Source: a virus
Lineage: Duplodnaviria > Caudoviricetes
DNA length: 42,520 nt
Direction: 5' to 3' (one strand)
Virus record (IMG/VR): IMGVR_UViG_3300033076_000628
Span: 1 to 42,520 of that record
This document shows, one piece after another, positions 2,402-42,331 of the stretch. The position numbers were made by a program, and so were the translations under genes. Every line of letters begins with the position of its first letter. Within the stretch, counting starts at the first letter, position 1. The notes under the pieces were generated by a model that made no database searches, had not been told where the DNA came from, and saw only the letters and a program-made list of their open reading frames with translations.

Positions 2402-2600
2402 GGAGTTCCCCTGGTGGCGGTGCAAGCCAGGGGAATCGTTCTTCGTGCCTACGCTAGACCCGCACACCGTTGCGCTTGATGGGGTTAAGGCTGCGGTAGA
2501 CCAACTAGGGTCTTACACCCCACACAGATACAAAATAGGAATCTATGCAGGGTACCTAGGAGTTCTATTCACCGTGCCAGCGAAGCGACGGCCTGATTAA
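2373..2600 (+). CDS. small phage protein, possibly DNA-binding
   Basis: FPWxxxxPGESFFVP motif recalled from small phage proteins; last + strand gene, converges on the late operon. Confidence 0.65.
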   Translation: MLKRKKKIVKEFPWWRCKPGESFFVPTLDPHTVALDGVKAAVDQLGSYTPHRYKIGIYAGYLGVLFTVPAKRRPD

Positions 2601-5600
2601 ACATCTTGGCAAAGTCATTGCGTTGTTGCTCTAGGGTGTCCAGTCGCGCGCGCAGCGCCTCCGGATCTTTTACCGTTCTGCGCAGAGCTTCTTCGGCCTT
2701 GCTAAACGCGGACATTTGCGTAGTAAATCTCTTGGCAAGCTCAGGAGACGCAATAACAACCGTTGCATTTTCTTTGAACTCTGCTGCCGCCGCAACCCGC
2801 CCTTCTTTGAGCATTTTCTGATAGGTGTTAGCGGCTTCTTCAAGTGCCTGTGCTTGCGCGTACGCTAGATCTGCAGGGCCACCGCCGTATTTACGCTGGA
2901 AGAGTGAACCAAACACAGGAGTATCACTGCCCCGCGCCGCAGGCTCCGTCTTCTGGGCGTCCGCATCGGCAAAGACACTGTTAACCATACGCGCAACAAT
3001 AACAGGAAGCTGCCCTAGGTAGCCGTTGGCTAGGTGCTCTATCTGCAGCGGAGACAGTTTCACCGCTTCTAGCGGCTGCTGCGCCAGCGCACTGGACAGG
3101 CTCTTAGCTAGTTCCGATGTAGTCTTACCGAAACGCTCTTGCGGCGCTAGTTTCTGCTGTTGTGGAGACTCGATAGTGCGACCTGTATACCAGTTGCTGT
3201 TGGACATTACTTCGAGCGCAGGGCGCGCAAGCTGGGGCACCCCGTACGACCCACTACCGGGTATTTGCTGAACTAGCATCTGCTTAGTGGCGTCCCACTC
3301 CTGCTTACCGAAGTTTCCTTTGATGGCGTCCAACAACGCTTCCGGGATGGCTTTGAACAACACGCCGACCTCAAAAGGTATCGGCAGTTTTATGTGCTCC
3401 CCGCCTGTTGGGTTAGGTAAGATGAAGTTCCCGTAGCGATCCCGCGCCCGTGCGTTGCGGTATGTTTCGTCGTCATCCATAGCTGCGGAGTACATCAATG
3501 TCATTGCGGCCAGCACCAGCGCACGATTCATGAACTTTTGCTTGATCTTCAGCTTTTCTTCCAACGGCATCTGCCCCTTGTACGCTTTGTACAGGACATT
3601 CAGACCTTGTATCTGCGCATTGAAGAAAGGGATCATGCGCGAAGCGTACTGAACAGTGGGGCTTATCCCGCGCTTATTGAAGTTCATCATCTCCATGGTA
3701 GCAAGCTCGGCCTCCATTTCTGGCATGCCCTTCTTTATGGCGTCTGCATAGAGCTGCGCACGGGTTGCCCCATCCGCTTTCATAGCCGCAGCGTCCCATC
3801 CAGCAATGAATTTCTGGTACGCAGACTGATCCCCGGTCGCTAGCTGCAGCCCGAACTTAGCCATGTCGTCCGGATCACCAGTGAATATGTTGCTATGTAC
3901 AACGCCCTTCTTTAATAGGGCCTTGGCAGGCTCACTCGTACCGGCCATTTGCTTACCGAATTCGGACACACTTTTGAACACGGCAGTAACAGGACCGGCG
4001 TCTAAACCACCAGTAAACGACGCTGCCATAGGATCACGCACCAACTGCCGTGCAATATACATCGGGTTCCGAGTAACGCCAGAGCGCAGCACATCACCAA
4101 ACCATCCGGCCACACGCAAGAATGCAGGCATCACTGCAAACGATCCTTCCAAACTCTGCGCTAGCATGTCAGAAGGAATCCCCTCCACCGCGGTGCCCGT
4201 AGTGTCTATAACAACATGGCGCGCGCCATCATCTCCAGGCACTTTCGGATCGGGCTCCTGATTGAAGCGAACTACGTGCGGGCTGTTACCGCCGTCGCCG
4301 CGACGAATTTGCATGACCTTGGCATCTTTGCCGATAGACTGCAACGCATAAGCCACGTCCTTGGTAGCCATGTTACGCATCGCCATATCGGTGAGGAGCA
4401 TCGTGTTCCTGATAAGCGCATCATTGAGCGGTAGTAGTTTCTGGTCTCCACCTTTGAGCTCTTGCAAATACGGTTGCGTACGAATATTCCCTACGGGCAG
4501 CGTCTTGCCCTCGCCAAGAACAAGTTCCGCAGACCCACTACCCTGCACACGGTAGAACGGCACATAATCACCATGCTCACTCAGCTTCGCCGCTTCTGCT
4601 TTGGATATCTTGCCACTCTGTGCCAAGAAGTTTATCAACCCCTTGTTGTACTCGTTATATAGCTTGCTGACTTCCTCTAGCGCGCTCTTCATAACCGGGT
4701 CTGCGTTCACCTCGCGCATCATGTCCTTACCCTGCTGCTCAAGCGCAGCGACATTACTGGGATCAAACCCAAGCTTATCCCAACCAACACGTTCAGCGCG
4801 TTTAGCGGTAAGATACACCTGTGCAGCGGCCATTTTCGCAGGACCATCTTTGCCCGGTAATTTCCCTACGGCTTCAAATATCTCTTTTGCACTCGGCCCG
4901 TTACCTGCCTCAATGATGGTGTTGCCTGCCGCGTCTTTCTTTGCCTGCAAAGGTCCTTCGGCAAGCGCTGCGTAGGTATGCCCCATGCGGTTGTCCGCTT
5001 TACGGATAAGGTACGCGGCCTGTGCCGCCTTCTTGGCTCCTGCAGCTCCCAGCGCCTTCATTATTGGCGCACGCATATCCACCGCAGCCATCTCAAAAGA
5101 CAGCCCTAGATTACTGTCCATACGTTCTTTAAACGTCTTCGGTTTCGATATCAGCTTTTCAGCAAGTGCTTGTGTAGCTGATCGCCCTATACTAGCTGCA
5201 GTAGAATTACGGAGTGTTGTTAGCGGACGTGACGGCTGCATCAGCCGCTCTACCAAAGCACGTGCTTTATCTGTTTGGGTAGGTCCGCTCGTGAAGCCTA
5301 GCAGTTTGAGTACACTTTCCTTGAATCTCTGCCACAACGTCTTTGGTTTACCCAATGCATCTAGTTTGGCTTGCAGATTCGGGTTAGACAGCACTTCCGC
5401 TGCAAACTCACGCACATTATGGATAGGCTCCCCCCTGAATTCTGGGCGAGACGCGACTGCCTGCCGCAACCCTTCCAACTCTCTCTTTGCGGCGCGTTGC
5501 TCTATCGAAAGACGCTCTTCCGGAAGTAATAGTGCCGCGTCTGTGGCAGCATGCACCAGCTCGTGTAGTGTGTCTTCTTCAGTAAGACCTTCCGAATGCA

Positions 5601-7953
5601 GCGTTACCGTATTCGTGCGTGGCTCGTACAAACCAGACACAGACTCGCCTTTGTATTGCACTTTGTCGTCCACATACATACGCACGTTGGCCGCATACGA
5701 AAGCAATTTGGACGCTACGGAACGCACAGTAGGCGTGGAGCCGCGTGCAGCGATATCCTGTAAAACAGACCGCGCATCGCCTTTCTTTGCCGCAGCCTTA
5801 ACTGTCTCTGGTAGTGGCGTAGATACCCGTTCAGCTATTTCACGTTTGATCGACGGTGCCTTTTCTTGCACCTGCGCCTTCTTAAGCCGCATTGTCTGCT
5901 TCTTTGCTGCAACCTGCGGCATCGGCGTATTTTGTACCGTGGTGGGCAAAACGGGCTTTTGGGCCATTTCTGCAGTAGGCGCTACTGTTTTTGTAGCTAC
6001 CGGGCCTTGTTCTATAGGGGCCGGCAACGGTGGCACTGCATCCTGCACGGCGGTGGACTTTGCCATATTTTCGGCAGTAAACAGCCCTGGATTCTGCGTT
6101 TTAAGCGCATCTAGTTTCTTGGACAACCGCTCGATAGCGTCCACATCTCCGGACTCCCCTGCCTGCTGCAGCTTCTTCTGTGTCTGCGCATACTGTTTGT
6201 TAAGTGCGTCATCCACGGGAGCGGCTTGTGCTGTACGTGGAAGTTGTGCGATCTCTTTTTGCGCTTGCTTGAGCGCGGTGTCTATCTTGCGGAACTGCTG
6301 CGCCTCTTGTTGGGCAGTGGCTGTGTCGCCAGCGCGGGCCGCAGTGGCTACCTTGTCTCTTTGTTGCTCAAGCGCATCGGTCAGCCCAGATATTGCACGA
6401 GTTAGCGCATCTCTGCGGGCTGCGATGTCCACAGGCTGAACGGGAGCGGTGGGTGCTTGTACAGGAGCTCCGAGCAAATTCTTATCAGGTTCTGTAGGTA
6501 CAGGCGCATTCGGAAATAGCCCGGTTTCCGGCGTTGGTTGTGCTTCTGCTGCGCGCGCAGTTGTTTCTGCTTGTGCCTTGGCAGCTTCGGCTTGCTGTGC
6601 ATCCAACACGGGTTTAACCTGCAGGTACTCCTCTGCGGCAGGGCGTAATGTTTCCTGCTCGTACGTTTTAAGGGCTTCCTGTGCCTGCTCCGCCTGTAGT
6701 TTCTCCGCCATAGTGGCATCTTTGCTCACCTTGGCGGCTTCTTTCATTTGAGCGTACTGTGCTTCTGCAGCTTGATACGCTTGTGCTACTTCTGCGGCGT
6801 ATGCAGGATCTTGTAGCTTGGTCTGTCTCGCGGCCTCTTCTTGTGCTTGTTGTACTTGCGCGGCTTGTGCCTGCGCTGCGCGTTGTTGCTCTTCCTCTTG
6901 TGCTCGTGCGCGTTCGCCGACACCCGCGCTATGGTACCCCGCAGCACCCCCCATTATTCCGCCAAGAAGGCCTGCCTGCCCGACTGCCGTACCGACACCC
7001 TGCATTATGTTTTGGTTCGGGTCCACCACCCCCATAGCCGCATTCTGCGCCAGCTGCCCGCCACCTTCCTCAACAGCTTCACTTATGCCCTCGCCAAGAA
7101 CACCCTTGCCGATACCCGCCAAACGTCCTGCAGTGCCAGGAGTGCCAGCAAATGCCTTTTCCAAAGAACGCGCGCCGGGTAAGCGTTGTGACAGATAGGA
7201 TATGACCGCGCCAGATGCGCCCGCGCTGCGTGCCAGAGTCAGTGCTTGACTAGCTGCTTCTTCAGGAGACTTACCCTCAGAGATGAGTTTTTTGTACACA
7301 TCTTCGTAGGTTTGCCCGCCCACCTGTGCGCCTTGCTGCGTCACTCCCATACCTACTGCGGCGGCTTCCGCACGCTTCCGCAGTGTCTCTTGCGCGGCTT
7401 TCAGCGCTGCTGCACGCGCTTCGCCCTCCAATCCTTCCTTGGCTACTTCTTGAGCTACCTTGCGCATCCCAAGCGCGACAGTACCTCTGGCGATACCGAA
7501 TCCGGGTAGTAAATTGACTACGTTTTCCGCCAGAAAATTTCCCAAAAGCGCGGGGTCTTTGAAAGTAGTGGATACGGCAGTGCCTACTTCCGGAAGAAAG
7601 CCTTCCTTGGCGGACTGTTGAATAGCCTCGCTTTGTGCCTGCTGCCTTGCTTTTAGCCCCGCAGATTGCTTTGACTTAGCGTATTCGGATATTGCCTGCC
7701 CCATTTTATTGAGGCTAGTATCCATATCTCCGGTAGCCAGTCCGTACAACTGTGCGGGAAACTGAACCAAAGAACCAACACCAGAAAGCGCGCTATAACC
7801 TAAATCTGCGGTTGATGTCTGCGGTTTTCCGGGGGTGCCCGCTTCCGGATTCTGTGCAAGTACCGCCTGTATAACCTGCTCTTGAGATGCCCCAGCAGGC
7901 CCCTCTATCTCGTACGTACGTCCGTTAGGGGCTTGAATGCTGTATGTAGGCAT
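2569..7953 (-). CDS. large internal virion/ejection (polyvalent) protein with a zincin-like HExxH domain and an LPD38-like C-terminus
   Basis: 1794 aa; Ala/Gln-rich coiled N-half; GLYEP...EDTLHELVHAAT...EFAAE; C-terminal PFFNAQIQG...KLPIPFEVG...SPLQIEHL; last gene of the structural operon. Confidence 0.8.
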   Translation of the reverse strand: MPTYSIQAPNGRTYEIEGPAGASQEQVIQAVLAQNPEAGTPGKPQTSTADLGYSALSGVGSLVQFPAQLYGLATGDMDTSLNKMGQAISEYAKSKQSAGLKARQQAQSEAIQQSAKEGFLPEVGTAVSTTFKDPALLGNFLAENVVNLLPGFGIARGTVALGMRKVAQEVAKEGLEGEARAAALKAAQETLRKRAEAAAVGMGVTQQGAQVGGQTYEDVYKKLISEGKSPEEAASQALTLARSAGASGAVISYLSQRLPGARSLEKAFAGTPGTAGRLAGIGKGVLGEGISEAVEEGGGQLAQNAAMGVVDPNQNIMQGVGTAVGQAGLLGGIMGGAAGYHSAGVGERARAQEEEQQRAAQAQAAQVQQAQEEAARQTKLQDPAYAAEVAQAYQAAEAQYAQMKEAAKVSKDATMAEKLQAEQAQEALKTYEQETLRPAAEEYLQVKPVLDAQQAEAAKAQAETTARAAEAQPTPETGLFPNAPVPTEPDKNLLGAPVQAPTAPVQPVDIAARRDALTRAISGLTDALEQQRDKVATAARAGDTATAQQEAQQFRKIDTALKQAQKEIAQLPRTAQAAPVDDALNKQYAQTQKKLQQAGESGDVDAIERLSKKLDALKTQNPGLFTAENMAKSTAVQDAVPPLPAPIEQGPVATKTVAPTAEMAQKPVLPTTVQNTPMPQVAAKKQTMRLKKAQVQEKAPSIKREIAERVSTPLPETVKAAAKKGDARSVLQDIAARGSTPTVRSVASKLLSYAANVRMYVDDKVQYKGESVSGLYEPRTNTVTLHSEGLTEEDTLHELVHAATDAALLLPEERLSIEQRAAKRELEGLRQAVASRPEFRGEPIHNVREFAAEVLSNPNLQAKLDALGKPKTLWQRFKESVLKLLGFTSGPTQTDKARALVERLMQPSRPLTTLRNSTAASIGRSATQALAEKLISKPKTFKERMDSNLGLSFEMAAVDMRAPIMKALGAAGAKKAAQAAYLIRKADNRMGHTYAALAEGPLQAKKDAAGNTIIEAGNGPSAKEIFEAVGKLPGKDGPAKMAAAQVYLTAKRAERVGWDKLGFDPSNVAALEQQGKDMMREVNADPVMKSALEEVSKLYNEYNKGLINFLAQSGKISKAEAAKLSEHGDYVPFYRVQGSGSAELVLGEGKTLPVGNIRTQPYLQELKGGDQKLLPLNDALIRNTMLLTDMAMRNMATKDVAYALQSIGKDAKVMQIRRGDGGNSPHVVRFNQEPDPKVPGDDGARHVVIDTTGTAVEGIPSDMLAQSLEGSFAVMPAFLRVAGWFGDVLRSGVTRNPMYIARQLVRDPMAASFTGGLDAGPVTAVFKSVSEFGKQMAGTSEPAKALLKKGVVHSNIFTGDPDDMAKFGLQLATGDQSAYQKFIAGWDAAAMKADGATRAQLYADAIKKGMPEMEAELATMEMMNFNKRGISPTVQYASRMIPFFNAQIQGLNVLYKAYKGQMPLEEKLKIKQKFMNRALVLAAMTLMYSAAMDDDETYRNARARDRYGNFILPNPTGGEHIKLPIPFEVGVLFKAIPEALLDAIKGNFGKQEWDATKQMLVQQIPGSGSYGVPQLARPALEVMSNSNWYTGRTIESPQQQKLAPQERFGKTTSELAKSLSSALAQQPLEAVKLSPLQIEHLANGYLGQLPVIVARMVNSVFADADAQKTEPAARGSDTPVFGSLFQRKYGGGPADLAYAQAQALEEAANTYQKMLKEGRVAAAAEFKENATVVIASPELAKRFTTQMSAFSKAEEALRRTVKDPEALRARLDTLEQQRNDFAKMFNQAVASLAR

Positions 7954-33875: not shown

Positions 33876-36299
33876 TCAGTAATACGTTGTACGGTGCCGT
33901 CTAAATAACTGCGGCTCATCTGGTTCATCAGAACTGAGGCGTATTAGACCACCTTGCCGAAAGCGCATCAATGCTTGGCTGCAGCAGTCCACATGCTCAT
34001 CGTGCTCCGAATTGGGAAACTCCGCTATCTGGTCAATCACTTCTTGTGCCCAGCGTGTCTCTGGAGCCCACACCATGCCGGATGAGAATATGTCCGCCAC
34101 TGAATTTATACGCACGCGCTTGTCCGCTCCGCGGCTAGGCGTGTACTCGTGGACTGGGAGTCCTGTTGCCCGCATCTCTTGTATCAGTGGGGCTCCTGCG
34201 GCCTTCTTTTCCACGATAACCATGTCAGGCTCCCACTCGCGGTAGTACTCAAAGGCGAACTTCTTGAGCTCCGGGAACTCCTTACGCCCTGTCCACGCAT
34301 CCAGCAAGATGAGCTGGTCCTGATTCTCTTCTTCATTGAACCAAATACCCCATGTGTGTACTGCACTTGGGTCCGCACTGTCATTCTTGCCGTGGGCGGT
34401 GTCCCAGGAGTGCAAAATAATGTCGCACTTTGGGGGTTTGGGTTTGTCCCACCTACGCCACCATTCGCGCTTTATAAGTGCGCCTTCCTCAGAGGTCGGC
34501 TCTTGCATATACTGCGCCGCCCAATACTGGGGTGCCATGCCTGCCTTCTTGGCTAACAGCTGCTCAATCGGCCACTGCTCCGGCCACAGACTTTTACCTG
34601 ACGGCATGATCGCCGGGAATCTAACCTCGTGCCAAGGAATACTGTCGGGGTTGTTCTCTGCCCAAGCCAGCGCGCGGCCAATGGGGTCTTTCTTCCCCCA
34701 GCGTGTGTTATGGCTGACTACACCGTTGGCAATGAAATTCTCTGTCCGCGCTACCTCAATGTCGAAAACAGCCTCGCAGCCGTCCTCTACTATCTCAACA
34801 ATCGCACTTGGCGTGGTAGCGTACGTACTCAGCAGCTGCACGCAGTCGCTGCTCCGTTTTTGCATACCCGATTGCCAAATTGCAGTGGTTGCAAAGCAGT
34901 CCTCGGATACGGTCAGTGTCGTGGCAGTGGTCAACGTACAGTTTTGGTTCCCGCCCGGCCCTTGTGTTTTCTCGCGTTGGGGGCTGCTTACAGATCGCGC
35001 ACCGCCCGTTTTGTTCGGCCAGCATACGTTGGTAGTCTTCTTCACCAATCCCATACCTGTGACGCAGATGCATATTGCGTTTTTGAGCTTCTGTAGGGCG
35101 GCGTTTACCTTCTTGCCAATACGCTTTGCCATAGCAGCTGTGGCAAAGTCCTGCGCACTTGACTGGCTGTTCGCAGCCTTCCGTAGCGCACGTGACTCCG
35201 CGCCACTTCCCCCAATGTCCGTTCCCGCGTTGGGTGCCTGTCCTGCCTGTTGCGTGCAGATGTCGCTTGTAGCAAACGGCACACAGTCCTTTTGCCTTGT
35301 ACGGTCGAACACACCCTTCGGTTGAACAACCTCTACCAAGCAGTCCCCCACTTTCAAGTCCCGCACTCTTACCCATGTCCGCACTCCTTCACGATCCACA
35401 AGAAACGGATGTCTCTTGTTTGCACGGACTATTTTACCGGAACTTGTTCTTATTTTGTAAACAAAATCAGCACGATGCTTAATCCAGTTTGTGACATGCG
35501 ACGTAGCGATAGCGCCGTTGTCGTAGGTGGCAATCTCGTCACCCGCAACGATATACTGCAACTCTTTCTCCGTGCCATCCGCCATCAGAACGCGTGTCTC
35601 GGCAGTCATACAACCGATCATAATAATACGACCACCGGGCATAAGCCGCTGCAAAGGACCTACCTGTAAGTAGTCAAAAGCGTTGGCAAAGGCTTTGTCT
35701 GGGTCTCCGGCCAAGACCGCCTGCTCAGATACTAAGTCATCCCCGATAAGCAAGTCCGCGCCACGGCCCGCTACAGAGCCGCCAATACCCACGGCAAGAT
35801 ACATGCCCCCCTTAGTCGTTGTCCAGTCCCCAGAAGCGCTTTTGTCTCGGGACACTACGGTGTCTGGAAAAATGTCACGGTATACCTGACTGTCTATCAA
35901 ATTGCGCACTTTGCGCCCGAAAGTGGCTGACAAGTCCGCCGTGTGCGTCACCATCATGATCTGGTGGTTCGGGTGCTTGCCCAAATACCAAGCCACATAC
36001 AGGTACGCCGTAAACTCGCTCTTGCCAAAACGTGGGGCCATCGAAACGGTAAGGCGGAGTTCTTCCCCTGCGCACACCTTGTGTAGTAATGGGCGCATAT
36101 GCCTGTGGTGCGGCCCCACTTTGAACTCCGGGTATACCCTGACACAGAATGCCAGAAAGTCCTCCCGGGCATTCGCAATACTTCGTTTTTCCTCAAGCTG
36201 CTCCAGATCGGCCAACAGCTTCTCCTTTTCCGCCACAGGCATGGCAGGAAGCGTTGCCAGCAACTGCGCTATTGTTTCCGGGGATAGGGAGTCAAGCAT
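33876..36299 (-). CDS. terL: terminase large subunit, intein-containing
   Basis: Walker A MAPRFGKS, Walker B LLIGDD, nuclease motifs SWDTA, VEKKAAG, HDEHVD. Confidence 0.95.
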   Translation of the reverse strand: MLDSLSPETIAQLLATLPAMPVAEKEKLLADLEQLEEKRSIANAREDFLAFCVRVYPEFKVGPHHRHMRPLLHKVCAGEELRLTVSMAPRFGKSEFTAYLYVAWYLGKHPNHQIMMVTHTADLSATFGRKVRNLIDSQVYRDIFPDTVVSRDKSASGDWTTTKGGMYLAVGIGGSVAGRGADLLIGDDLVSEQAVLAGDPDKAFANAFDYLQVGPLQRLMPGGRIIMIGCMTAETRVLMADGTEKELQYIVAGDEIATYDNGAIATSHVTNWIKHRADFVYKIRTSSGKIVRANKRHPFLVDREGVRTWVRVRDLKVGDCLVEVVQPKGVFDRTRQKDCVPFATSDICTQQAGQAPNAGTDIGGSGAESRALRKAANSQSSAQDFATAAMAKRIGKKVNAALQKLKNAICICVTGMGLVKKTTNVCWPNKTGGARSVSSPQREKTQGPGGNQNCTLTTATTLTVSEDCFATTAIWQSGMQKRSSDCVQLLSTYATTPSAIVEIVEDGCEAVFDIEVARTENFIANGVVSHNTRWGKKDPIGRALAWAENNPDSIPWHEVRFPAIMPSGKSLWPEQWPIEQLLAKKAGMAPQYWAAQYMQEPTSEEGALIKREWWRRWDKPKPPKCDIILHSWDTAHGKNDSADPSAVHTWGIWFNEEENQDQLILLDAWTGRKEFPELKKFAFEYYREWEPDMVIVEKKAAGAPLIQEMRATGLPVHEYTPSRGADKRVRINSVADIFSSGMVWAPETRWAQEVIDQIAEFPNSEHDEHVDCCSQALMRFRQGGLIRLSSDEPDEPQLFRRHRTTYY
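34707..35612 (-). mobile_element. intein (302 aa) in TerL
   Basis: Begins CMTAETRVLMADG, block B ANKRHPF, ends VFDIEV...NFIANGVVSHN then Thr; exteins rejoin as IIMIG|TRW. Confidence 0.95.
34795..35376 (-). CDS. endonuclease VII-type homing endonuclease in an alternative frame inside the intein
   Basis: RYGI...QNGRCAIC...VDHCH...IRGLLCNHCN; two N-terminal C-x4-C...GLC..C repeats; AAGGAG ends 8 nt before the ATG. Confidence 0.9.
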   Translation of the reverse strand: MGKSAGLESGGLLGRGCSTEGCVRPYKAKGLCAVCYKRHLHATGRTGTQRGNGHWGKWRGVTCATEGCEQPVKCAGLCHSCYGKAYWQEGKRRPTEAQKRNMHLRHRYGIGEEDYQRMLAEQNGRCAICKQPPTRENTRAGREPKLYVDHCHDTDRIRGLLCNHCNLAIGYAKTEQRLRAAAEYVRYHAKCDC

Positions 36300-36687
36300 A
36301 GTCGCAGCCCATCCTACGGGCAAATTCCGCCATCAGTTCTTGTGCAATCGACTGAATTGCGTATGCTTCTTGTTCCGTTCCGGGTGTGTGTTCACCTATA
36401 CGTTCTGCGTACGCTTGCCATATATGCACCGCCTCATGTACTAGTAATCCAGCTACTTCTATGGGGTTGCGTTTCTCGTAATCTGATAAAGCGACAATGC
36501 AGCAGTGTGCGCCTTTATTACTGTCCAGCATATGCACCGTAGCTTGACTATGTGCGTTTTTTACGTAAGCTTGACCTACAGCTACTCCCAGCTTTTTTAA
36601 CTCACGATCAAACTCTTCCTGACTTAATACCAAAGTCAAATAAGGTCCCGGAGCGGCAACACGACGGTCTCTCCACTTTGGTTTCAT
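36292..36687 (-). CDS. HExxH zincin-like small protein
   Basis: LLVHEAVHIWQ...EQEAY; lies between the two terminase genes. Confidence 0.65.
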   Translation of the reverse strand: MKPKWRDRRVAAPGPYLTLVLSQEEFDRELKKLGVAVGQAYVKNAHSQATVHMLDSNKGAHCCIVALSDYEKRNPIEVAGLLVHEAVHIWQAYAERIGEHTPGTEQEAYAIQSIAQELMAEFARRMGCDYA

Positions 36688-37238
36688 TCCTTACTCTCCA
36701 CATCCTGCACCACTTGAACAGGGGGAAGTAGGCTTGCCAGCTTTGCCTTGATGCGCTGCTCCAGCTCGTCCGCGGACTCGTTTTTATGTACCACTTCGGA
36801 ACGTTCTGTAAAACTTGCAACTTCGGTTAGCTTGCCTGTCAGCTCAAGTGCGCGCAGGCGTATGCGGGCGTCAGGGTGTTTGGTTTCTTCGAGTAGCTTG
36901 GCGACGACGTACCCGCGGATCTCTTTGGCTTGTTCGACAAACTCCCAGTCGTATTGGGACAGCATGCCCGCCAGATGGCGTACGGCTTCGGGAACCTTGA
37001 GCGCAAGGATTGCGCGGTTGCGTTCTACGTCTGTCTGTTCTGGGTTTGTTACCGCGGCGAATGCACGGCGTGCGGCGTATGCCTGATCTTCTTCAAGGAT
37101 GTGGTTAGGACTTCCTAGTGATTCTAGAAATTCTGCCGTCGATGCTTGACCGGCCAACAACTGTGCGGTGTCGGCACTTTTCAACTCAATAAAATCCTCC
37201 GCTTTCAGCGCGGTGATGTGTTCAAAGACGTTTCCCAT
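36684..37238 (-). CDS. terminase small subunit (putative)
   Basis: First late gene; helical; RLRALELTGK..VASF motif; RBS AAGGA. Confidence 0.65.
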   Translation of the reverse strand: MGNVFEHITALKAEDFIELKSADTAQLLAGQASTAEFLESLGSPNHILEEDQAYAARRAFAAVTNPEQTDVERNRAILALKVPEAVRHLAGMLSQYDWEFVEQAKEIRGYVVAKLLEETKHPDARIRLRALELTGKLTEVASFTERSEVVHKNESADELEQRIKAKLASLLPPVQVVQDVESKE

Positions 37239-37269
37239 TTTCCTTGCGCCGTAGGGTTGGCGTTGTTCT

Positions 37270-37298
37270 AGTGTACACTACGTTTGTCCTATCAGCAA
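37270..37298 (-). promoter_or_regulatory. late-operon sigma70-like promoter
   Basis: TTGCTG-N17-TACACT; the -10 lies in the perfect palindrome TAGTGTACACTA (37269-37280). Confidence 0.65.
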
Positions 37299-37379
37299 TA
37301 GGACTGTCATTCTCCCTGAAAGTCGGCGGTTGCGCCCCGACCTTGATCCCCAGCGTTGTAAGACTCTGGGGATTTTTTT
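37285..37379 (+). ncRNA. candidate trans-acting anti-RBS sRNA
   Basis: Hairpin, unpaired UGUCAUUCUCCCU, hairpin, intrinsic terminator; no + strand gene upstream to explain the terminator. Confidence 0.65.
37346..37379 (+). terminator. intrinsic terminator of the candidate sRNA
   Basis: ATCCCCAG...CTGGGGAT 8-bp stem, inner GTT-GTAA-GAC (GNRA loop), T7 tail. Confidence 0.8.
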
Positions 37380-37730
37380 GTCCAAAATTTTTTGTGCTAT
37401 AAAATTTACTTGACTGTTTTAGTCGGATATAACGGCTTGTGTTTTTGTGCTATGAATTCGATAGCAGAGGTGGGGCTTTTTTATAACTTAAAAAGTTAGT
37501 AAACACTAACAAATGTATAGGCTTTGTTTGGAACACTGTTTATGTTCCGCAGCATACACGCACGTCCAAAAGGGGTGGTGCCCCCACCGTACCTCGCCCA
37601 TATAGCCAAATCGTTATATAGCGCCGCAGCGCGCCACGTTGCACAGTCTGTAGCTTGCGGGTGGACGCCGCATGATGTGGGCAAGACAGCAGCACTACTA
37701 CGTCCATAGTGTTGGCAGCGCCGCGAGACA

Positions 37731-37759
37731 GGATGGCCTCCAGATTCTGGAGGCCATCC
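37731..37759. repeat. 29-bp palindrome
   Basis: GGATGGCCTCCAGA-T-TCTGGAGGCCATCC, perfect 14-bp arms. Confidence 0.9.
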
Positions 37760-38137: not shown

Positions 38138-38453
38138 TAAAAGACTTAGCGGGGCTTCCTTTTGTTCTCTCTTATATATTTAATATATTTATATACGTGT
38201 GTATAGATATGTATGTACGTGTATATACACGTAAAAAGGGGGTGAATGACATTGCCCTACCATAGACACTTTTTACAAAACGGGCATGCTTTATTTTTTT
38301 CCGGACGTGCTACTAAAAAGATAGCGATAGGTTTTATGCGGGTTACAGAAGCACATGGCTGTTTTCTCCCGAATCGTGCTGGATAGGCAGGGTATCGTAA
38401 ACGCAGTGTACAATTCTGCCATAGACAACTTTTAAATAACATTGCCATACACT

Positions 38454-39347
38454 ATGAGAACCACATCACTAAACAAACTGGCCCGCTTGCTTAACCGCCC
38501 TGAGATTCCCGCGCATGTACAGATTGAAATAGTCAATGCAATGCGCAACACATCCAAGTCAGAACGCACATCTATTGCATGGAAACGTATATTTTCCATT
38601 CTTGCAGCAGACAAACGTAGCATTGTGAACAATCAAGGCAAGCGCCCGGAGTACCTCAAACAAGTCTATGCGGAATATTTAGCACTAATTGAAAAGGTAC
38701 ATACACGCATGAAGATCGCACAATTGCATGGAAGCCCGGAGGACGCAGAACGGGCGGCAGCAAAGCTAAACGCAGACCGGGCGCATGCTGGAGAGCCCCC
38801 GCTTGGTGCGTGCTCCACACACTGGGCCACGTGGATACCGCCAAAAGTGCGGGAAGACTTTTGCCATAAGGTGACTGTAGCGTATGAGCACGCAGGGCGC
38901 AGGGTAACTAATAAATTCATCCCGTTTTGCCCACCTAATCAACGGCGCGTGATCCACACAATGATTGTCAATCTTAAAAAAGCAATTAAGCGCGTACGCT
39001 CAAGGCACGAGAGCTACCCAGGTGCTAACCACGGTTACACGCCATACCGGGCACTATATCTAGCAGCTGCACGCATGGCCGAGCGCGGACTGGACAAGAT
39101 AACCAAAGGCTATGAGCTGGGCGCACTCAACCCGATAGACAACCCACCACCCGTTAACTGGCTAGCTCTGGTCGAGCCTGCCATGCGTGCCCGACTGCGT
39201 GCAGCACAAGAGAACCCGCACGACGTAGACCTACAAGGCCTCGAGACGTTCTACGCACCACTACCGGACAACACCCCCACCGACGAGCTGGACGCTACGG
39301 ACCAAGCGCATGCCAGCACTCATCCGCTAGAGGACATGGAGGACTAA
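38454..39347 (+). CDS. hypothetical basic helical protein
   Basis: ~298-aa ORF, first + strand gene after the control region; no recognised motif; start uncertain. Confidence 0.65.
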   Translation: MRTTSLNKLARLLNRPEIPAHVQIEIVNAMRNTSKSERTSIAWKRIFSILAADKRSIVNNQGKRPEYLKQVYAEYLALIEKVHTRMKIAQLHGSPEDAERAAAKLNADRAHAGEPPLGACSTHWATWIPPKVREDFCHKVTVAYEHAGRRVTNKFIPFCPPNQRRVIHTMIVNLKKAIKRVRSRHESYPGANHGYTPYRALYLAAARMAERGLDKITKGYELGALNPIDNPPPVNWLALVEPAMRARLRAAQENPHDVDLQGLETFYAPLPDNTPTDELDATDQAHASTHPLEDMED

Positions 39348-39395
39348 GGGATAACCCTTAAGGGTAAGCACCTAGAAAATAATTGTTGGCAGGCC

Positions 39396-39423
39396 TTGCA
39401 TTGGCTAATTATTGCGCTACACT
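39396..39423 (+). promoter_or_regulatory. early sigma70-like promoter
   Basis: TTGCAT-N16-TACACT upstream of the RBS at 39444; preceded by palindrome TAAGGG-ATAA-CCCTTA (39345-39360). Confidence 0.5.
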
Positions 39424-39456
39424 TTAGACATCAACAATGCAACGGAGAATGACAAA

Positions 39457-39741
39457 ATGGCAAGAATTGCATTTGAATGCGCAAAAGCGCGATACGTACA
39501 TCGATTCACCATGGACCACACCCCCGAATGGGCCAAAAAGCCCATGCCTAACGGTTTCTATTACGCACCGCAGTTCGCCAGTGACTGGGAATGGTATTCA
39601 AAAACAAAATTTCCCGGTGAACCCGGTCTGCACGGCAATTGCAAACACTGCGAGACGGGCGCGCCAACATGGCCGATAGGCCAAACTCTGTCTAAACAGT
39701 ACGCTAAAAGCACAGTTACACAATGCAGACTAAACAAATAG
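39457..39741 (+). CDS. early phage protein
   Basis: YVHRFTMDH.PEWA...YYAPQFASD.EW; RBS GGAG. Confidence 0.7.
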   Translation: MARIAFECAKARYVHRFTMDHTPEWAKKPMPNGFYYAPQFASDWEWYSKTKFPGEPGLHGNCKHCETGAPTWPIGQTLSKQYAKSTVTQCRLNK

Positions 39742-39880
39742 GCAGACCACCACGGGCAACGCCGGCACCAAAGCCGGTGAGCTGGAGACCCAAGACGCAG
39801 GCAATACGCGACTACTACCTGCAGCTAGGTGGTGCTAGATGGCTAAACAGACTTTTAACTAACCTAAAGGAGAATGCGAA

Positions 39881-40030
39881 ATGAAACGCTATGTAATACG
39901 TCATGACGACGATCTTGAGTTTCCCTACGAAGTGTGGGATACCACGACAGACAAACTCATTGACGCATTTAAAGCACGCTGGCAGGCCGAAGAGTTCGCC
40001 GCAGAATGCGAAGGGGATAGCAATGACTGA
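39881..40030 (+). CDS. 49-aa early protein (not in the ORF track)
   Basis: MKRYVIRHDDDLEFPYEVWDTTTDKLIDAFKARWQAEEFAAECEGDSND; RBS AAGGAG. Confidence 0.7.
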   Translation: MKRYVIRHDDDLEFPYEVWDTTTDKLIDAFKARWQAEEFAAECEGDSND

Positions 40031-40232
40031 CCGCAAAAACAAAGCCCGGATCATCCGCAGCCTAGACGGACGACGCATCCGATTCACCCATAGGTTTAAC
40101 ACATGGCAGGTACTCAAGCCAAACGGGGACTGGAGAAATATCCGCCCCGAGCTGGCCCGGTGCTACGCAGCTGCGGGTTTCCCTATCGGTGTGCAGGGTT
40201 TACCTGCGCCTGTGCAGTATGAGTTGTTTTAG
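40023..40232 (+). CDS. early hypothetical protein
   Basis: MTDRKNKARII...; start overlaps the upstream stop. Confidence 0.6.
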   Translation: MTDRKNKARIIRSLDGRRIRFTHRFNTWQVLKPNGDWRNIRPELARCYAAAGFPIGVQGLPAPVQYELF

Positions 40233-40236
40233 GAGA
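40192..40236 (+). repeat. repeat A copy 1 (45 bp)
   Basis: Identical to 40638-40682. Confidence 0.95.
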
Positions 40237-40241
40237 ATGAA

Positions 40242-40598
40242 TTGAAAACACCGTATAGTTTTTTCTTGTCGCATGCGGGCTATAGTTATAACCCCGAGAC
40301 CCAGACCCCCGCGCAAGGTAGGGCACAGTGCGCTAAGGCACTAGCACAAGCAGAAGCCAAGGCCACGGAAGCGGGTCTTCGTACGATATGGGCTATTGAC
40401 GAAGACACAAACAGTTTAGATTTTACAGACGAAAGCTACCCCCTTTATAGGTGCTGTTTAGTGCGCGGGGAGAATGAGATTGTGCAAAGCCTGCATGGCG
40501 TAGATTTCGGTCCCGACGTACAACCTTGGGGTACGCCATACGCAAGAGTATTAGCGGCGGAGCTAGCTCTAGAGCATTTCAGAGGACTAACAAAATGA
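40242..40598 (+). CDS. early hypothetical protein (TTG start)
   Basis: FFLSHAGYSYNP...SLHGVDF...YARV; RBS AGGAG. Confidence 0.7.
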   Translation: MKTPYSFFLSHAGYSYNPETQTPAQGRAQCAKALAQAEAKATEAGLRTIWAIDEDTNSLDFTDESYPLYRCCLVRGENEIVQSLHGVDFGPDVQPWGTPYARVLAAELALEHFRGLTK

Positions 40599-40626
40599 AA
40601 ATCAAAACAGCAGAACTCACAGGCGC
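40583..40626 (+). repeat. repeat B copy 1 (44 bp), containing a truncated NinX start MKIKTAELTGA*
   Basis: Identical to 40854-40897. Confidence 0.95.
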
Positions 40627-40637
40627 GTAATGCACGA

Positions 40638-40682
40638 TGCAGGGTTTACCTGCGCCTGTGCAGTATGAGTTGTTTTAGGAGA
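40638..40682 (+). repeat. repeat A copy 2
   Basis: TGCAGGGTTTACCTGCGCCTGTGCAGTATGAGTTGTTTTAGGAGA. Confidence 0.95.
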
Positions 40683-40687
40683 GCACC

Positions 40688-40861
40688 ATGGGAACGGATT
40701 TTAAAGTATATAAACGCAAGATTCACGTCTATTTAAAAAAACCAAAAGGACTCTATTACGTATGGTCTACCAATGCCTATAGAACGTGCCGCGATGCCGT
40801 GAAGGCCGCTAAAGAAAAGTACCCGCAACGGGACTTTAAAGCCTGCTTCGCAAAGGACTAA
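40688..40861 (+). CDS. 57-aa basic early protein (not in the ORF track)
   Basis: MGTDFKVYKRKIHVYLKKPKGLYYVWSTNAYRTCRDAVKAAKEKYPQRDFKACFAKD; RBS AGGAG. Confidence 0.7.
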   Translation: MGTDFKVYKRKIHVYLKKPKGLYYVWSTNAYRTCRDAVKAAKEKYPQRDFKACFAKD

Positions 40862-40897
40862 CAAAATGAAAATCAAAACAGCAGAACTCACAGGCGC
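40854..40897 (+). repeat. repeat B copy 2
   Basis: AGGACTAACAAAATGAAAATCAAAACAGCAGAACTCACAGGCGC. Confidence 0.95.
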
Positions 40898-41201
40898 AGC
40901 CCTTGCTTGGGCAGTGGCGAAGTGTGAGGGGTTTGCTCCCTTCACGGATGGAATTTCGTGGATTATTGACAAGGCAGGAACCTGGGTGCAGCTACCCAAA
41001 TACTCAACCGACTGGGCACAAGGCGGACCGATCATTGAGCGGGAGAAAATTGCCGTTCAGTTTGGCCCACAATGGACAGCAGTACATCACAAACATCTTG
41101 GGCGATTTCATTACGGACCCACCCCACTAGTCGCAGCAATGCGAACTTATGTGGCTTCCAAACTCGGCGACGAAGTGGAGGTGCCCAATGCACTATCTTA
41201 A
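40866..41201 (+). CDS. NinX-like (DUF2591) protein
   Basis: ELTGAALAWAVA...YSTDWAQGGPII...GPTPLVAAMR..VASKLG. Confidence 0.8.
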   Translation: MKIKTAELTGAALAWAVAKCEGFAPFTDGISWIIDKAGTWVQLPKYSTDWAQGGPIIEREKIAVQFGPQWTAVHHKHLGRFHYGPTPLVAAMRTYVASKLGDEVEVPNALS

Positions 41202-41415
41202 AGCGGCGGTACCGTACATGCTGCTGTACGTAATGGACTACTTTGCACTGGACTTAAGGATGCGGGGGTACGTGTTGCTGTGCGGTCTGCTGCTGTTCAC
41301 GCAAGTGTCTAGTTACTTCAGTGGGCTCAAACGAGGCATAACCATTGGGTGTATCGCCGGGGAGATTGCCCTACGCAAGACACTCGCGGATATTAAACAA
41401 ACTTTAGGAGAATGA
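41188..41415 (+). CDS. small membrane protein
   Basis: Two hydrophobic segments; GGAGG upstream of ATG 41188. Confidence 0.55.
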   Translation: MHYLKAAVPYMLLYVMDYFALDLRMRGYVLLCGLLLFTQVSSYFSGLKRGITIGCIAGEIALRKTLADIKQTLGE

Positions 41416-41418
41416 CAA

Positions 41419-41562
41419 ATGACGCTAGACGAAGCCATAAGACTTGCTATTGAGACGCTTGAAAATGTGCGGGGCAACATAAACCCCGAGAGGGGGTTTT
41501 GTGACGAACTTGAAGCAGACGTGCAGAAAGCCCTGGATGCGCTTACATCCGCAAGACAATAA
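41419..41562 (+). CDS. 47-aa early protein (not in the ORF track)
   Basis: MTLDEAIRLAIETLENVRGNINPERGFCDELEADVQKALDALTSARQ; RBS AGGAG. Confidence 0.65.
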   Translation: MTLDEAIRLAIETLENVRGNINPERGFCDELEADVQKALDALTSARQ

Positions 41563-41620
41563 CCAATAATTTACACCCGGCGAAAACGCCGAAAGAACCG
41601 TAACTTTAGGAGAATGACAA

Positions 41621-42079
41621 ATGACTACGTACTACATGCAAGACTATGCCGGGATGGTTTTTACAACCACTAACCCTGAGTACCACAAAGACTGCGCGAA
41701 ACTGACCGCCAAGAAGGGTAAAGCCGCGCTCATGACGCAAGCTAGGACAAGATTATTAGCGATACTGTCCCCCGGCGATACGGTGTATACAGTGCTGCGG
41801 CACGCCTCCTCCTCTGGGATGTCCCGGCGCATATCTCTGATCATCGCACACGCTGACCAGCTGCGCAATATCGACAGCCTAGCAGCGCAGGCCATGGACT
41901 GTAAACAATCGGACAAAGGCGGTATTGTTGTCGGTGGCTGCGGTATGGATATGGGCTTTGAACTCGTCTATAACTTGGGGCATGCGCTCTGGCCTAACGG
42001 CACACCAACACCACACGGTACCCGCAACGGCACACCAGATAAAGACGGTGGGTATGCACTGAAACATGAGTGGATTTAA
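41621..42079 (+). CDS. conserved early phage protein
   Basis: GDTVYTVLRH.S.SGMSR.I...VGGCGMDMGF.LVY.L. Confidence 0.75.
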   Translation: MTTYYMQDYAGMVFTTTNPEYHKDCAKLTAKKGKAALMTQARTRLLAILSPGDTVYTVLRHASSSGMSRRISLIIAHADQLRNIDSLAAQAMDCKQSDKGGIVVGGCGMDMGFELVYNLGHALWPNGTPTPHGTRNGTPDKDGGYALKHEWI

Positions 42080-42088
42080 GGGGCGCAT

Positions 42089-42331
42089 ATGCTAGAAGTT
42101 AAACAAATAACTTTCGCTGGGCGAAGCAGTGCAGTTATGTCTGTGCCTGCGGCAGTGGAGTTTGTTGTCGCAAGGAATGCGTGTGCTGCAGAACATTTAG
42201 AACGAATACAGGAAGAAATTGACACACTTAAACAGTTCGTAGGTGCCATTTTGGAACGCATGCCTGAACGCAACATACTTAACGTACTAAATGAAGTTTC
42301 ATACGGCTGGGAGAAAGACACAGCATGCTAA
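42089..42331 (+). CDS. early hypothetical protein
   Basis: 80-aa ORF with AAGGGG RBS. Confidence 0.6.
   Translation: MLEVKQITFAGRSSAVMSVPAAVEFVVARNACAAEHLERIQEEIDTLKQFVGAILERMPERNILNVLNEVSYGWEKDTAC

Follow-up and report, generated by a model that had tools for sequence, protein, structure and literature searches.

The c4 RNA of phages P1 and P7 pairs at or close to the site where translation begins and so represses a gene of its own phage. It controls one antirepressor operon, keeping lysogeny. The sar RNA of P22 also represses a gene of its own phage by pairing, and its gene lies opposite that of its target. PreS of lambda and VpdS of VP882 are trans-acting phage sRNAs that work on host mRNA or by competing for Hfq. 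In the available part of the review that describes them (PMC12197685), phage sRNAs have either a single phage gene or the host as their target. SviR, from the Vibrio cholerae satellite PLE, is a trans-acting RNA with two seeds that also hits the helper phage ICP1 (bioRxiv 10.1101/2022.04.08.487710, available part).

The DNA analysed here (the window) is 42,520 nt long and is a whole virus record. Upstream of its packaging operon lies an element that is real as a sequence element and is a family-wide, uncatalogued candidate sRNA. SviR appears to be the closest analogue in the part of that source available: its seed pairs near the ribosome-binding sites (RBSs) of several genes of its own element, lowering translation, and the same is proposed here. 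SviR is a satellite RNA with two seeds, whereas the candidate has one seed and belongs to a probably lytic phage. Unlike SviR as described there, it has a predicted two-way packaging promoter and family-wide covariation of seed and RBS, and the two are likened by mechanism, not by sequence. The antisense RNAs c4 and sar control one antirepressor operon for lysogeny, whereas the candidate has many scattered predicted targets. PreS and VpdS are also phage-encoded but, as described in the same part of PMC12197685, do not address a class of the phage's own RBSs.

Anti-hemB, other anti-Shine-Dalgarno (anti-SD) sRNAs and the candidate are alike in being short, with a C/U-rich anti-SD, a hairpin and a CCCC/GGGG terminator with a U tail (PMC1950547, available part). 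The anti-SD of anti-hemB lies in a loop according to that text; that of the candidate lies in a linker and varies with the phage RBSs. Anti-hemB, suhB/MmgR and the Betaproteobacteria toxic sRNA are chromosomal, whereas the candidate is phage-encoded. By analogy, the candidate is proposed to work like SviR and the multi-target bacterial anti-RBS sRNAs.

No Rfam family passes its threshold for the window RNA. C4 (RF01695) has no match at E <=5 in the window and none at E <=0.5 in 20 related loci. The likeness to the C4 RNA of P1/P7 drawn in the initial annotation holds as a loose analogy, and SviR is the closer comparison. Anti-hemB (RF02837) scores 23.9 bits in the window and 25.5 and 23.8 bits in two of the 20 related loci (threshold 49.5). 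The scores are 15.1 bits in the window and at best 32.1 in related loci for suhB/MmgR (RF00519, threshold 41), and 11.9 and at best 28.3 for the toxic sRNA (RF02278, threshold 50). Membership in the C4, anti-hemB, suhB/MmgR or toxic sRNA families was rejected on these scores. No description of the element was found in the literature searched. Six seed strings were absent from the searched files of the Fremin 2023 catalogue (PMC10690425), of which other parts may hold an unannotated entry.

The phage and its predicted two-way promoter

The long minus-strand operon opens with a 184-aa ORF, followed by terL, portal, GroES, capsid and virion protein genes. This ORF is called terS-like by position only; it had no match in the PHROG search, has 1073 homologues, and terS patterns matched about 1300 stored viral stretches. 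The small plus-strand genes begin about 1 kb from the packaging operon, and a primase/helicase and a methyltransferase (16-2401) lie on the same strand as these. The classes 'early', 'middle' and 'late' used below are assigned on the basis of gene content and strand. Carrying genes for terL, portal, capsid and primase, the window encodes a self-replicating phage. The record is probably incomplete, as near-complete relatives span 59-81 kb. The terL gene (33876-36323) encodes 815 aa, about 320 aa more than in the nearest cultured relatives, and matched as two pieces; the insert is probably intein-like. The last late gene (2569-7953, 1794 aa) matches virion RNA polymerase families of PHROG over part of its length (E 2e-22).

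Neither the RNA region nor the terS-like protein has a match among cultured phages. The nearest by terL are HTVC027P, HTVC023P, DSL-LC04 and MinM2 (40-46% identity). No such element was seen by eye upstream of their packaging genes, and the RNA model R1 had no match on the fetched stretches of these four. The host search returned two MAG contigs only (genome contigs), and GroES had one weak match against plasmids. A tyrosine integrase (PF00589) was found in 0/14 near-complete uncultured relatives and in 0/18 records, in a search that covered PF00589 only. DNA polymerase A is present in all 14 near-complete relatives. Together these point to a lytic life, and the phage is probably lytic. The dormancy role suggested earlier is left without support by the same two counts.

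The features of the locus are as follows.

36684..37238, minus strand: terS-like gene, 184 aa, opening the packaging operon; named by position only
37251..37256, plus strand: -35 position of the RNA-directed promoter, reading GTAGGG, a poor match (sequence, family counts)
37270..37279, both strands: two-way -10 AGTGTACACT, reading TACACT on each strand with the central TA in common (sequence, family counts)
37293..37298, minus strand: terS-directed -35 TTGCTG, spaced 17 nt from its -10, also the P1 loop (sequence, family counts)
37286..37379, plus strand: predicted sRNA of about 94 nt, running between a predicted start 7 nt past the -10 and the U tail (fold z -3.42, conservation)
37286..37304, plus strand: 5' hairpin P1; 4/4 tested pairs changed on both sides, present in 71/102 lineages
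37305..37317, plus strand: seed TGTCATTCTCCCT, single-stranded, complementing SD and spacer (fold, matching, covariation)
37322..37341, plus strand: middle hairpin P2; 4/5 tested pairs changed on both sides, present in 83/102 lineages
37345..37379, plus strand only: intrinsic terminator with T7 tail and GUAA loop (fold; terminator in 238/250 distinct regions)

The coordinates given in the initial annotation for P1, the linker, P2, the terminator with T7 to 37379 and the palindrome (37269-37280) all check out. The terminator does have a GNRA-type loop (GUAA) in the window, but the loop is not constant among relatives. The RNA region folds at -36.5 kcal/mol (z -3.42), which none of 200 shuffles equals, and the seed linker is largely single-stranded (unpaired probability of each base 0.60-1.00). 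The predicted RNA ends in a U tail. R1 finds one copy in the window, which is one of its training sequences.

The palindrome at the -10 reads both ways, as first noted, in the window and in the family. Of 199 regions, 170 have an AnnnTAnnnT motif no more than 60 nt from the terS start; a control window gives 21 and shuffling 28.1. The letters of the two-way -10 vary (AGTGTACACT, AGTGTATACT, ATGGTACCAT and others), keeping one -10 on each strand. Compared with four control spacings, TTG is found at the RNA-side -35 position in 65/102 lineages (3-9 at control spacings) and at the terS-side -35, with 16-18 nt spacing, in 78/102 (0-8 at control spacings). The predicted starts are 37286 (plus strand, the first base of P1) and 37263 (minus strand), 23 bp apart. 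A predicted two-way, sigma-70-type shared promoter is thus supported by the motif counts. The idea of one bidirectional promoter for the late operon and an sRNA stands for the family, which shares the -10 and has a TTG on both sides, but the RNA-side -35 is poor in the window. The RNA promoter of this phage may therefore be weak or need an activator.

The available part of a study of bidirectional sigma-70 promoters (PMC12825309) gives 23 bp among the common start-site distances, and describes overlapping -10 elements like those of the phage promoter. Unlike the promoters described there, the phage promoter has both -35 elements conserved, and one of its products is a predicted regulatory RNA. 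The same text reports that polymerases compete between directions only at high activity, so the promoter architecture alone makes no switch.

Several other features lie past the RNA terminator. An operator-like TGCTAT..ATAGCA palindrome is found just past it in the window (37448-37466, 37394-37403) and in clade-1 relatives; the strict form occurs in 4/63 lineages and looser forms are common. A GG[AG]A[CT]A[CG]TGTT-type motif (37530-37540 in the window) is found past the terminator in 32/63 lineages, in 29 of these at 71-186 nt, and is a candidate terminase or origin signal. A perfect 14-bp inverted repeat with arms 1 nt apart lies at 37731-37759, and contigs break near it. The contig ends upstream of terS do not mark a clear genome terminus.

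Conservation of the element

Relatives were collected through the terS-like protein (best 80 per scan) and through the DNA pattern. This gave 350 loci with at least 200 nt upstream of terS, 250 of them distinct. The syntenic element looked for upstream of terS is found family-wide: among the 250 distinct regions, 238 have the divergent terminator, 222 the CTCC anti-SD core and 215 the AnnnTAnnnT motif, the missing features being in part detection failures and in part real losses. In a scan with the DNA pattern only, 79 of 118 new loci lay within 250 nt upstream of terS and pointed away from it. Two others have terS elsewhere, and 37 lack terS; by eye, these 37 are chance matches except L281. 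R1 gives one match each in 13/16 long records, five of which are training sequences or near them, and none in L006, L054, L073 or L307. The L006 locus has an anti-SD and terminator element (about 900-990) some 700 nt farther from terS than usual and without an R1 score, perhaps a displaced copy. Six tRNA genes are clustered directly past the RNA terminator in L194 (2431-3039).

The predicted RNA is 68-105 nt long (median 88, 102 lineages), with a fold z below -2 in 57/63 lineages and CTCC unpaired in the minimum free energy fold of 78/102. The compensatory test, on 20 clade-1 sequences, counted 47 cells with two-sided changes in nine pairs of P1 and P2. None of 500 shuffles reaches this number, which is also above all slid controls; the helices counted were those of the window's own fold, a choice in their favour. 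RNAalifold on the gappy 20-sequence alignment gave no consensus structure. The conserved GCAA of the P1 loop is the terS -35 on the other strand, so its conservation is no evidence of RNA function.

An SD-led ORF of at least 10 codons on the RNA strand is found in only 7/102 lineages, and a small protein from this strand was rejected on that count. The element has the features of an sRNA, with promoter motifs of its own, an intrinsic terminator and no coding frame, though the window's own -35 is poor.

It is scarcely credible that the other strand of the seed is a true RBS and start codon from which a leader peptide or an extended terS is translated. An ATG does lie 4-10 nt past the GGAG on the terS strand in 115 of 218 distinct elements, but only 24 of these 115 are in frame and open to terS. 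The ORF lengths run from about 5 to more than 200 codons, the frames differ among close relatives, and the site is upstream of the predicted terS transcription start, with the window ATG 1 nt from the GGAG. The leader peptide was rejected on the small in-frame fraction and the unstable lengths and frames.

Seed matches and ribosome-binding sites

The linker complement was said to precede early start codons, and these matches exceed chance. The motif GGAGAATGACA occurs seven times genome-wide at up to one mismatch, against 0.42 expected, and none of 100 shuffles reaches seven. One occurrence is the seed itself; the other six are all on the plus strand (38241-42320), and the 35-kb late strand has none apart from the seed. 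Five of the six precede a start codon (TTG 38252, 39457, 41419, 41621 and 42325), and the sixth (40469) falls within ORF 40242-40598. The predicted targets, all on the plus strand, are listed with their duplex energies.

38241..38251: possible target, 10/11, before a 44-aa ORF (TTG 38252) whose reality is uncertain; -18.3 kcal/mol
39444..39454: predicted target, 11/11, RBS of gene 39457-39741 (94 aa); -18.3 kcal/mol
39869..39876: predicted weak target, 8 nt, gene 39881-40030; -12.5 kcal/mol, inside the late-site range
40232..40240: predicted weaker target, 9 nt, gene 40242-40598; -15.0 kcal/mol
41407..41417: predicted target, 11/11, RBS of gene 41419-41562; -19.2 kcal/mol
41609..41619: predicted target, 11/11, RBS of gene 41621-42079 (phrog_12365); -19.2 kcal/mol
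42310..42320: predicted target, 10/11, RBS of a gene that begins at 42325 and is truncated by the contig end; -17.0 kcal/mol

The early target list first proposed was right in its three 11/11 sites (39444, 41407 and 41609), but the gene behind the first starts at 39457 and is not the 39437 frame. It was also incomplete, as the sites at 38241-38251 and 42310-42320 had been missed. Gene 39457-39741 is the first behind a promoter-like site, TTGCAT-16-TACACT (39396-39423). Most predicted target genes have no function assigned by family search.

Pairing energies of -15.0 kcal/mol or lower are reached at six of 13 early start regions, and the strongest of 36 late starts gives -13.1; these starts were set by hand, one early and one late wrongly. 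Late-gene RBSs do lack a seed-matching spacer, as first noted. An automatic pairing test of all genes (15 early, 39 late), in which several starts were mis-called, was null (p 0.47). Since 6/13 early starts pair strongly, the seed addresses only a subset of the early genes.

The early region holds duplicated 45-47-nt gene-start cassettes, 98-100% identical (40580-40626/40851-40897 and 40192-40236/40638-40682). Its first ORF (38454-39347, 297 aa) lacks an SD and has no PHROG match and no usable Atlas match. An AT-rich TATA/TACG hairpin at 38167-38243 draws spurious miRNA matches and is a possible origin element.

The motif could work as DNA, either as a protein site upstream of the packaging promoter and at early genes or as a by-product of cassette duplication, with the hairpins as operators and the terminator as an insulator. 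The duplicated gene starts, the operator-like palindromes nearby and the GCAA explained as the terS -35 would suit this. But anywhere from 5 to 84 nt separates the -10 from the seed, which runs inverted to its targets and stays single-stranded between stems that carry compensatory changes, and the middle hairpin and one-way terminator are retained. Cassette duplication accounts for the likeness among early RBSs, not for a mirrored copy inside a promoter-terminator unit. A DNA role is very unlikely on these grounds.

For the covariation test, every seed was scored against the start regions of every phage, row and column means were removed, and the result was permuted. It used 63 lineages, one per 80% terS cluster, each with at least four GGAG-type early starts. 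Pairing of the own seed with its own early sites is 0.99 kcal/mol stronger (double-centred -0.99, z -6.6, n=63), with the advantage in 47/63 lineages. It is present within clade 1 (13/14, p 0.00015) and within clade 2 (31/45, p 0.0003), four lineages outside both clades being excluded. Clustering at 80, 70 or 65% gave z -5.0 to -6.25 (before eight seeds were re-picked), and spacer-only counts gave z -6.5. The own seed beats its own shuffles in 54/63 early sets, against 21/34 late sets. For branch-disjoint pairs whose seeds differ at 2, 3 and 4 of six positions, the median one-sided p over 200 pairings is 0.015, 0.004 and 0.065.

Across the tree, AATGAC seeds go with early AATGAC (window and L094), CACGAC with CATGAC (L121), CATTCC with TATTCC (L002) and AATCAAG with AATCAACC (L190). 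In clade 2, AAGCAA goes with early AAAGCAA.

Late starts show no own-seed advantage, and internal GGAG..ATG control sites are null. Avoidance of late sites is slight: z was 2.8 in 12 lineages and is +0.9 to +1.9 overall in 25-53 lineages, with p about 0.007 and 0.02 within clades. About a quarter of the lineages (16/63) have no own-seed advantage. Between nearest sister pairs, whose seeds mostly differ little, the own seed is better in 17/35 (p 0.66). The expected covariation of seed and early RBS spacers is thus borne out across the family, in both clades and not at late sites, but not between nearest sisters.

Across 16 long records the early strand holds 105 of the 128 best sites, where 79 are expected. 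It is favoured in 11/16 records (p 0.025), and the count goes the wrong way in five; two of these five counts took the reverse strand of the seed itself for a late site. The best sites reach 10-20 kb out, around the DNA polymerase gene. With several distant early start regions matched in the window and in these records, the seed is multi-target, as first suggested.

Seeds that also complement the AUG occur in 44/102 lineages, against 8.0 by shuffling. The G.U-compatible C>T change is found in 49/123 own pairs, against 1317/5670 foreign pairs. The other wobble class, A>G, gives no support (38/166 own, 2291/9150 foreign), and the non-pairing G>A change is higher in own pairs, so that the wobble evidence is mixed overall.

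Some lineages lack both seed and terminator (L049, L054, L070, L072, L073, L087, L299-L301, L307 and L346), and most of them keep a -10-like motif. L073, L054 and L307 are otherwise normal-looking. L073 keeps the AAAGCAA/AAGCAACC RBS style of its clade, and in L059, the RNA-bearing lineage closest to it, the seed is a poor match to the lineage's own sites. The RNA is thus dispensable, and it is not the only thing that maintains the RBS style. It appears more likely that the seed tracks an RBS style than that it creates one. Clade-2 loci (such as L033, L059, L065 and L169) also have a TGTC-N8-GACA inverted repeat 14-27 nt past the terminator T run, at a nearly fixed distance and kept in RNA-less L054 and L073; it is possibly a repressor or packaging site.

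The RNA may be real and mainly target host mRNAs during take-over, the early genes merely copying the host RBS style and the late genes avoiding the seed. The survival of the RBS style after RNA loss is in keeping with this, as are the weak, sub-threshold likeness to beta- and alphaproteobacterial anti-SD sRNAs (anti-hemB 23.9, suhB up to 32.1 and toxic sRNA up to 28.3 bits) and the clade-2 lineage L040, whose clade-1-like seed mismatches its own early sites. However, the matched spacers are repeated and specific to each genome (several copies of AAAGCAA in L189, ATTGAC/AGATGAC in L023, ATCG.. in L310), the late genes share the ribosomes yet lack such spacers, and covariation is present within both clades. 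Host mRNAs are thus unlikely to be the main targets.

Proposed role of the RNA

Covariation alone would fit self-repression, exclusion of kin or a shared cause such as host RBS style. The element is probably a multi-target translational repressor RNA of early and middle genes that spares the late genes, a reading based on sequence comparison and held with some confidence. The host sigma-70 RNA polymerase would transcribe the RNA of about 90 nt from the promoter it has in common with the packaging operon. Flanked by two hairpins, the seed would pair over the SD, the spacer and often the AUG. Early and middle mRNAs would then lose ribosome access as a group by occlusion, and late mRNAs would escape through their different spacers. 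Hfq helps sRNAs of this kind at the U tail, and may do so here. Coupled to the packaging promoter, the RNA level would climb with late transcription and template number, possibly giving a sharp switch. Its purpose may be a delayed brake on early and middle expression, tied to use of the packaging promoter. From the overall interpretation first offered, the conserved predicted RNA gene, the two-way promoter and the co-varying, multi-target seed stand, but dormancy and close kinship with C4 do not.

Superinfection exclusion could instead be the main role, the RNA silencing early genes in a related phage that arrives second and has the same RBS style, with seed/RBS pairs as RNA immunity groups. 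Within its clade the seed matches the early sites, pairing across sister lineages is as good as self-pairing, and with its sigma-70 motifs the promoter could act throughout infection. An RNA-based precedent, STnc6030, is described in the available part of PMC12197685. But with no integrase, a benefit would need a long infection or a carrier state, and exclusion and self-regulation look alike by sequence. As the main role, exclusion seems quite improbable.

A more speculative reading, tentative and rather doubtful, joins exclusion to the favoured reading of self-repression. The lineage-specific spacers of early and middle genes would be a barcode read by the packaging-promoter sRNA, which would end the pre-late programme without a protein repressor and also silence superinfecting kin with the same barcode. 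Seed and spacer would drift together into RNA immunity groups.

If the RNA acts as proposed, it would bring early expression to a close without a protein, addressing a temporal class of the phage's own genes through the RBS spacer. It would also explain the stereotyped RBS spacers common to the early genes of this phage family. The family is large, and supplies dozens of natural seed/target pairs.
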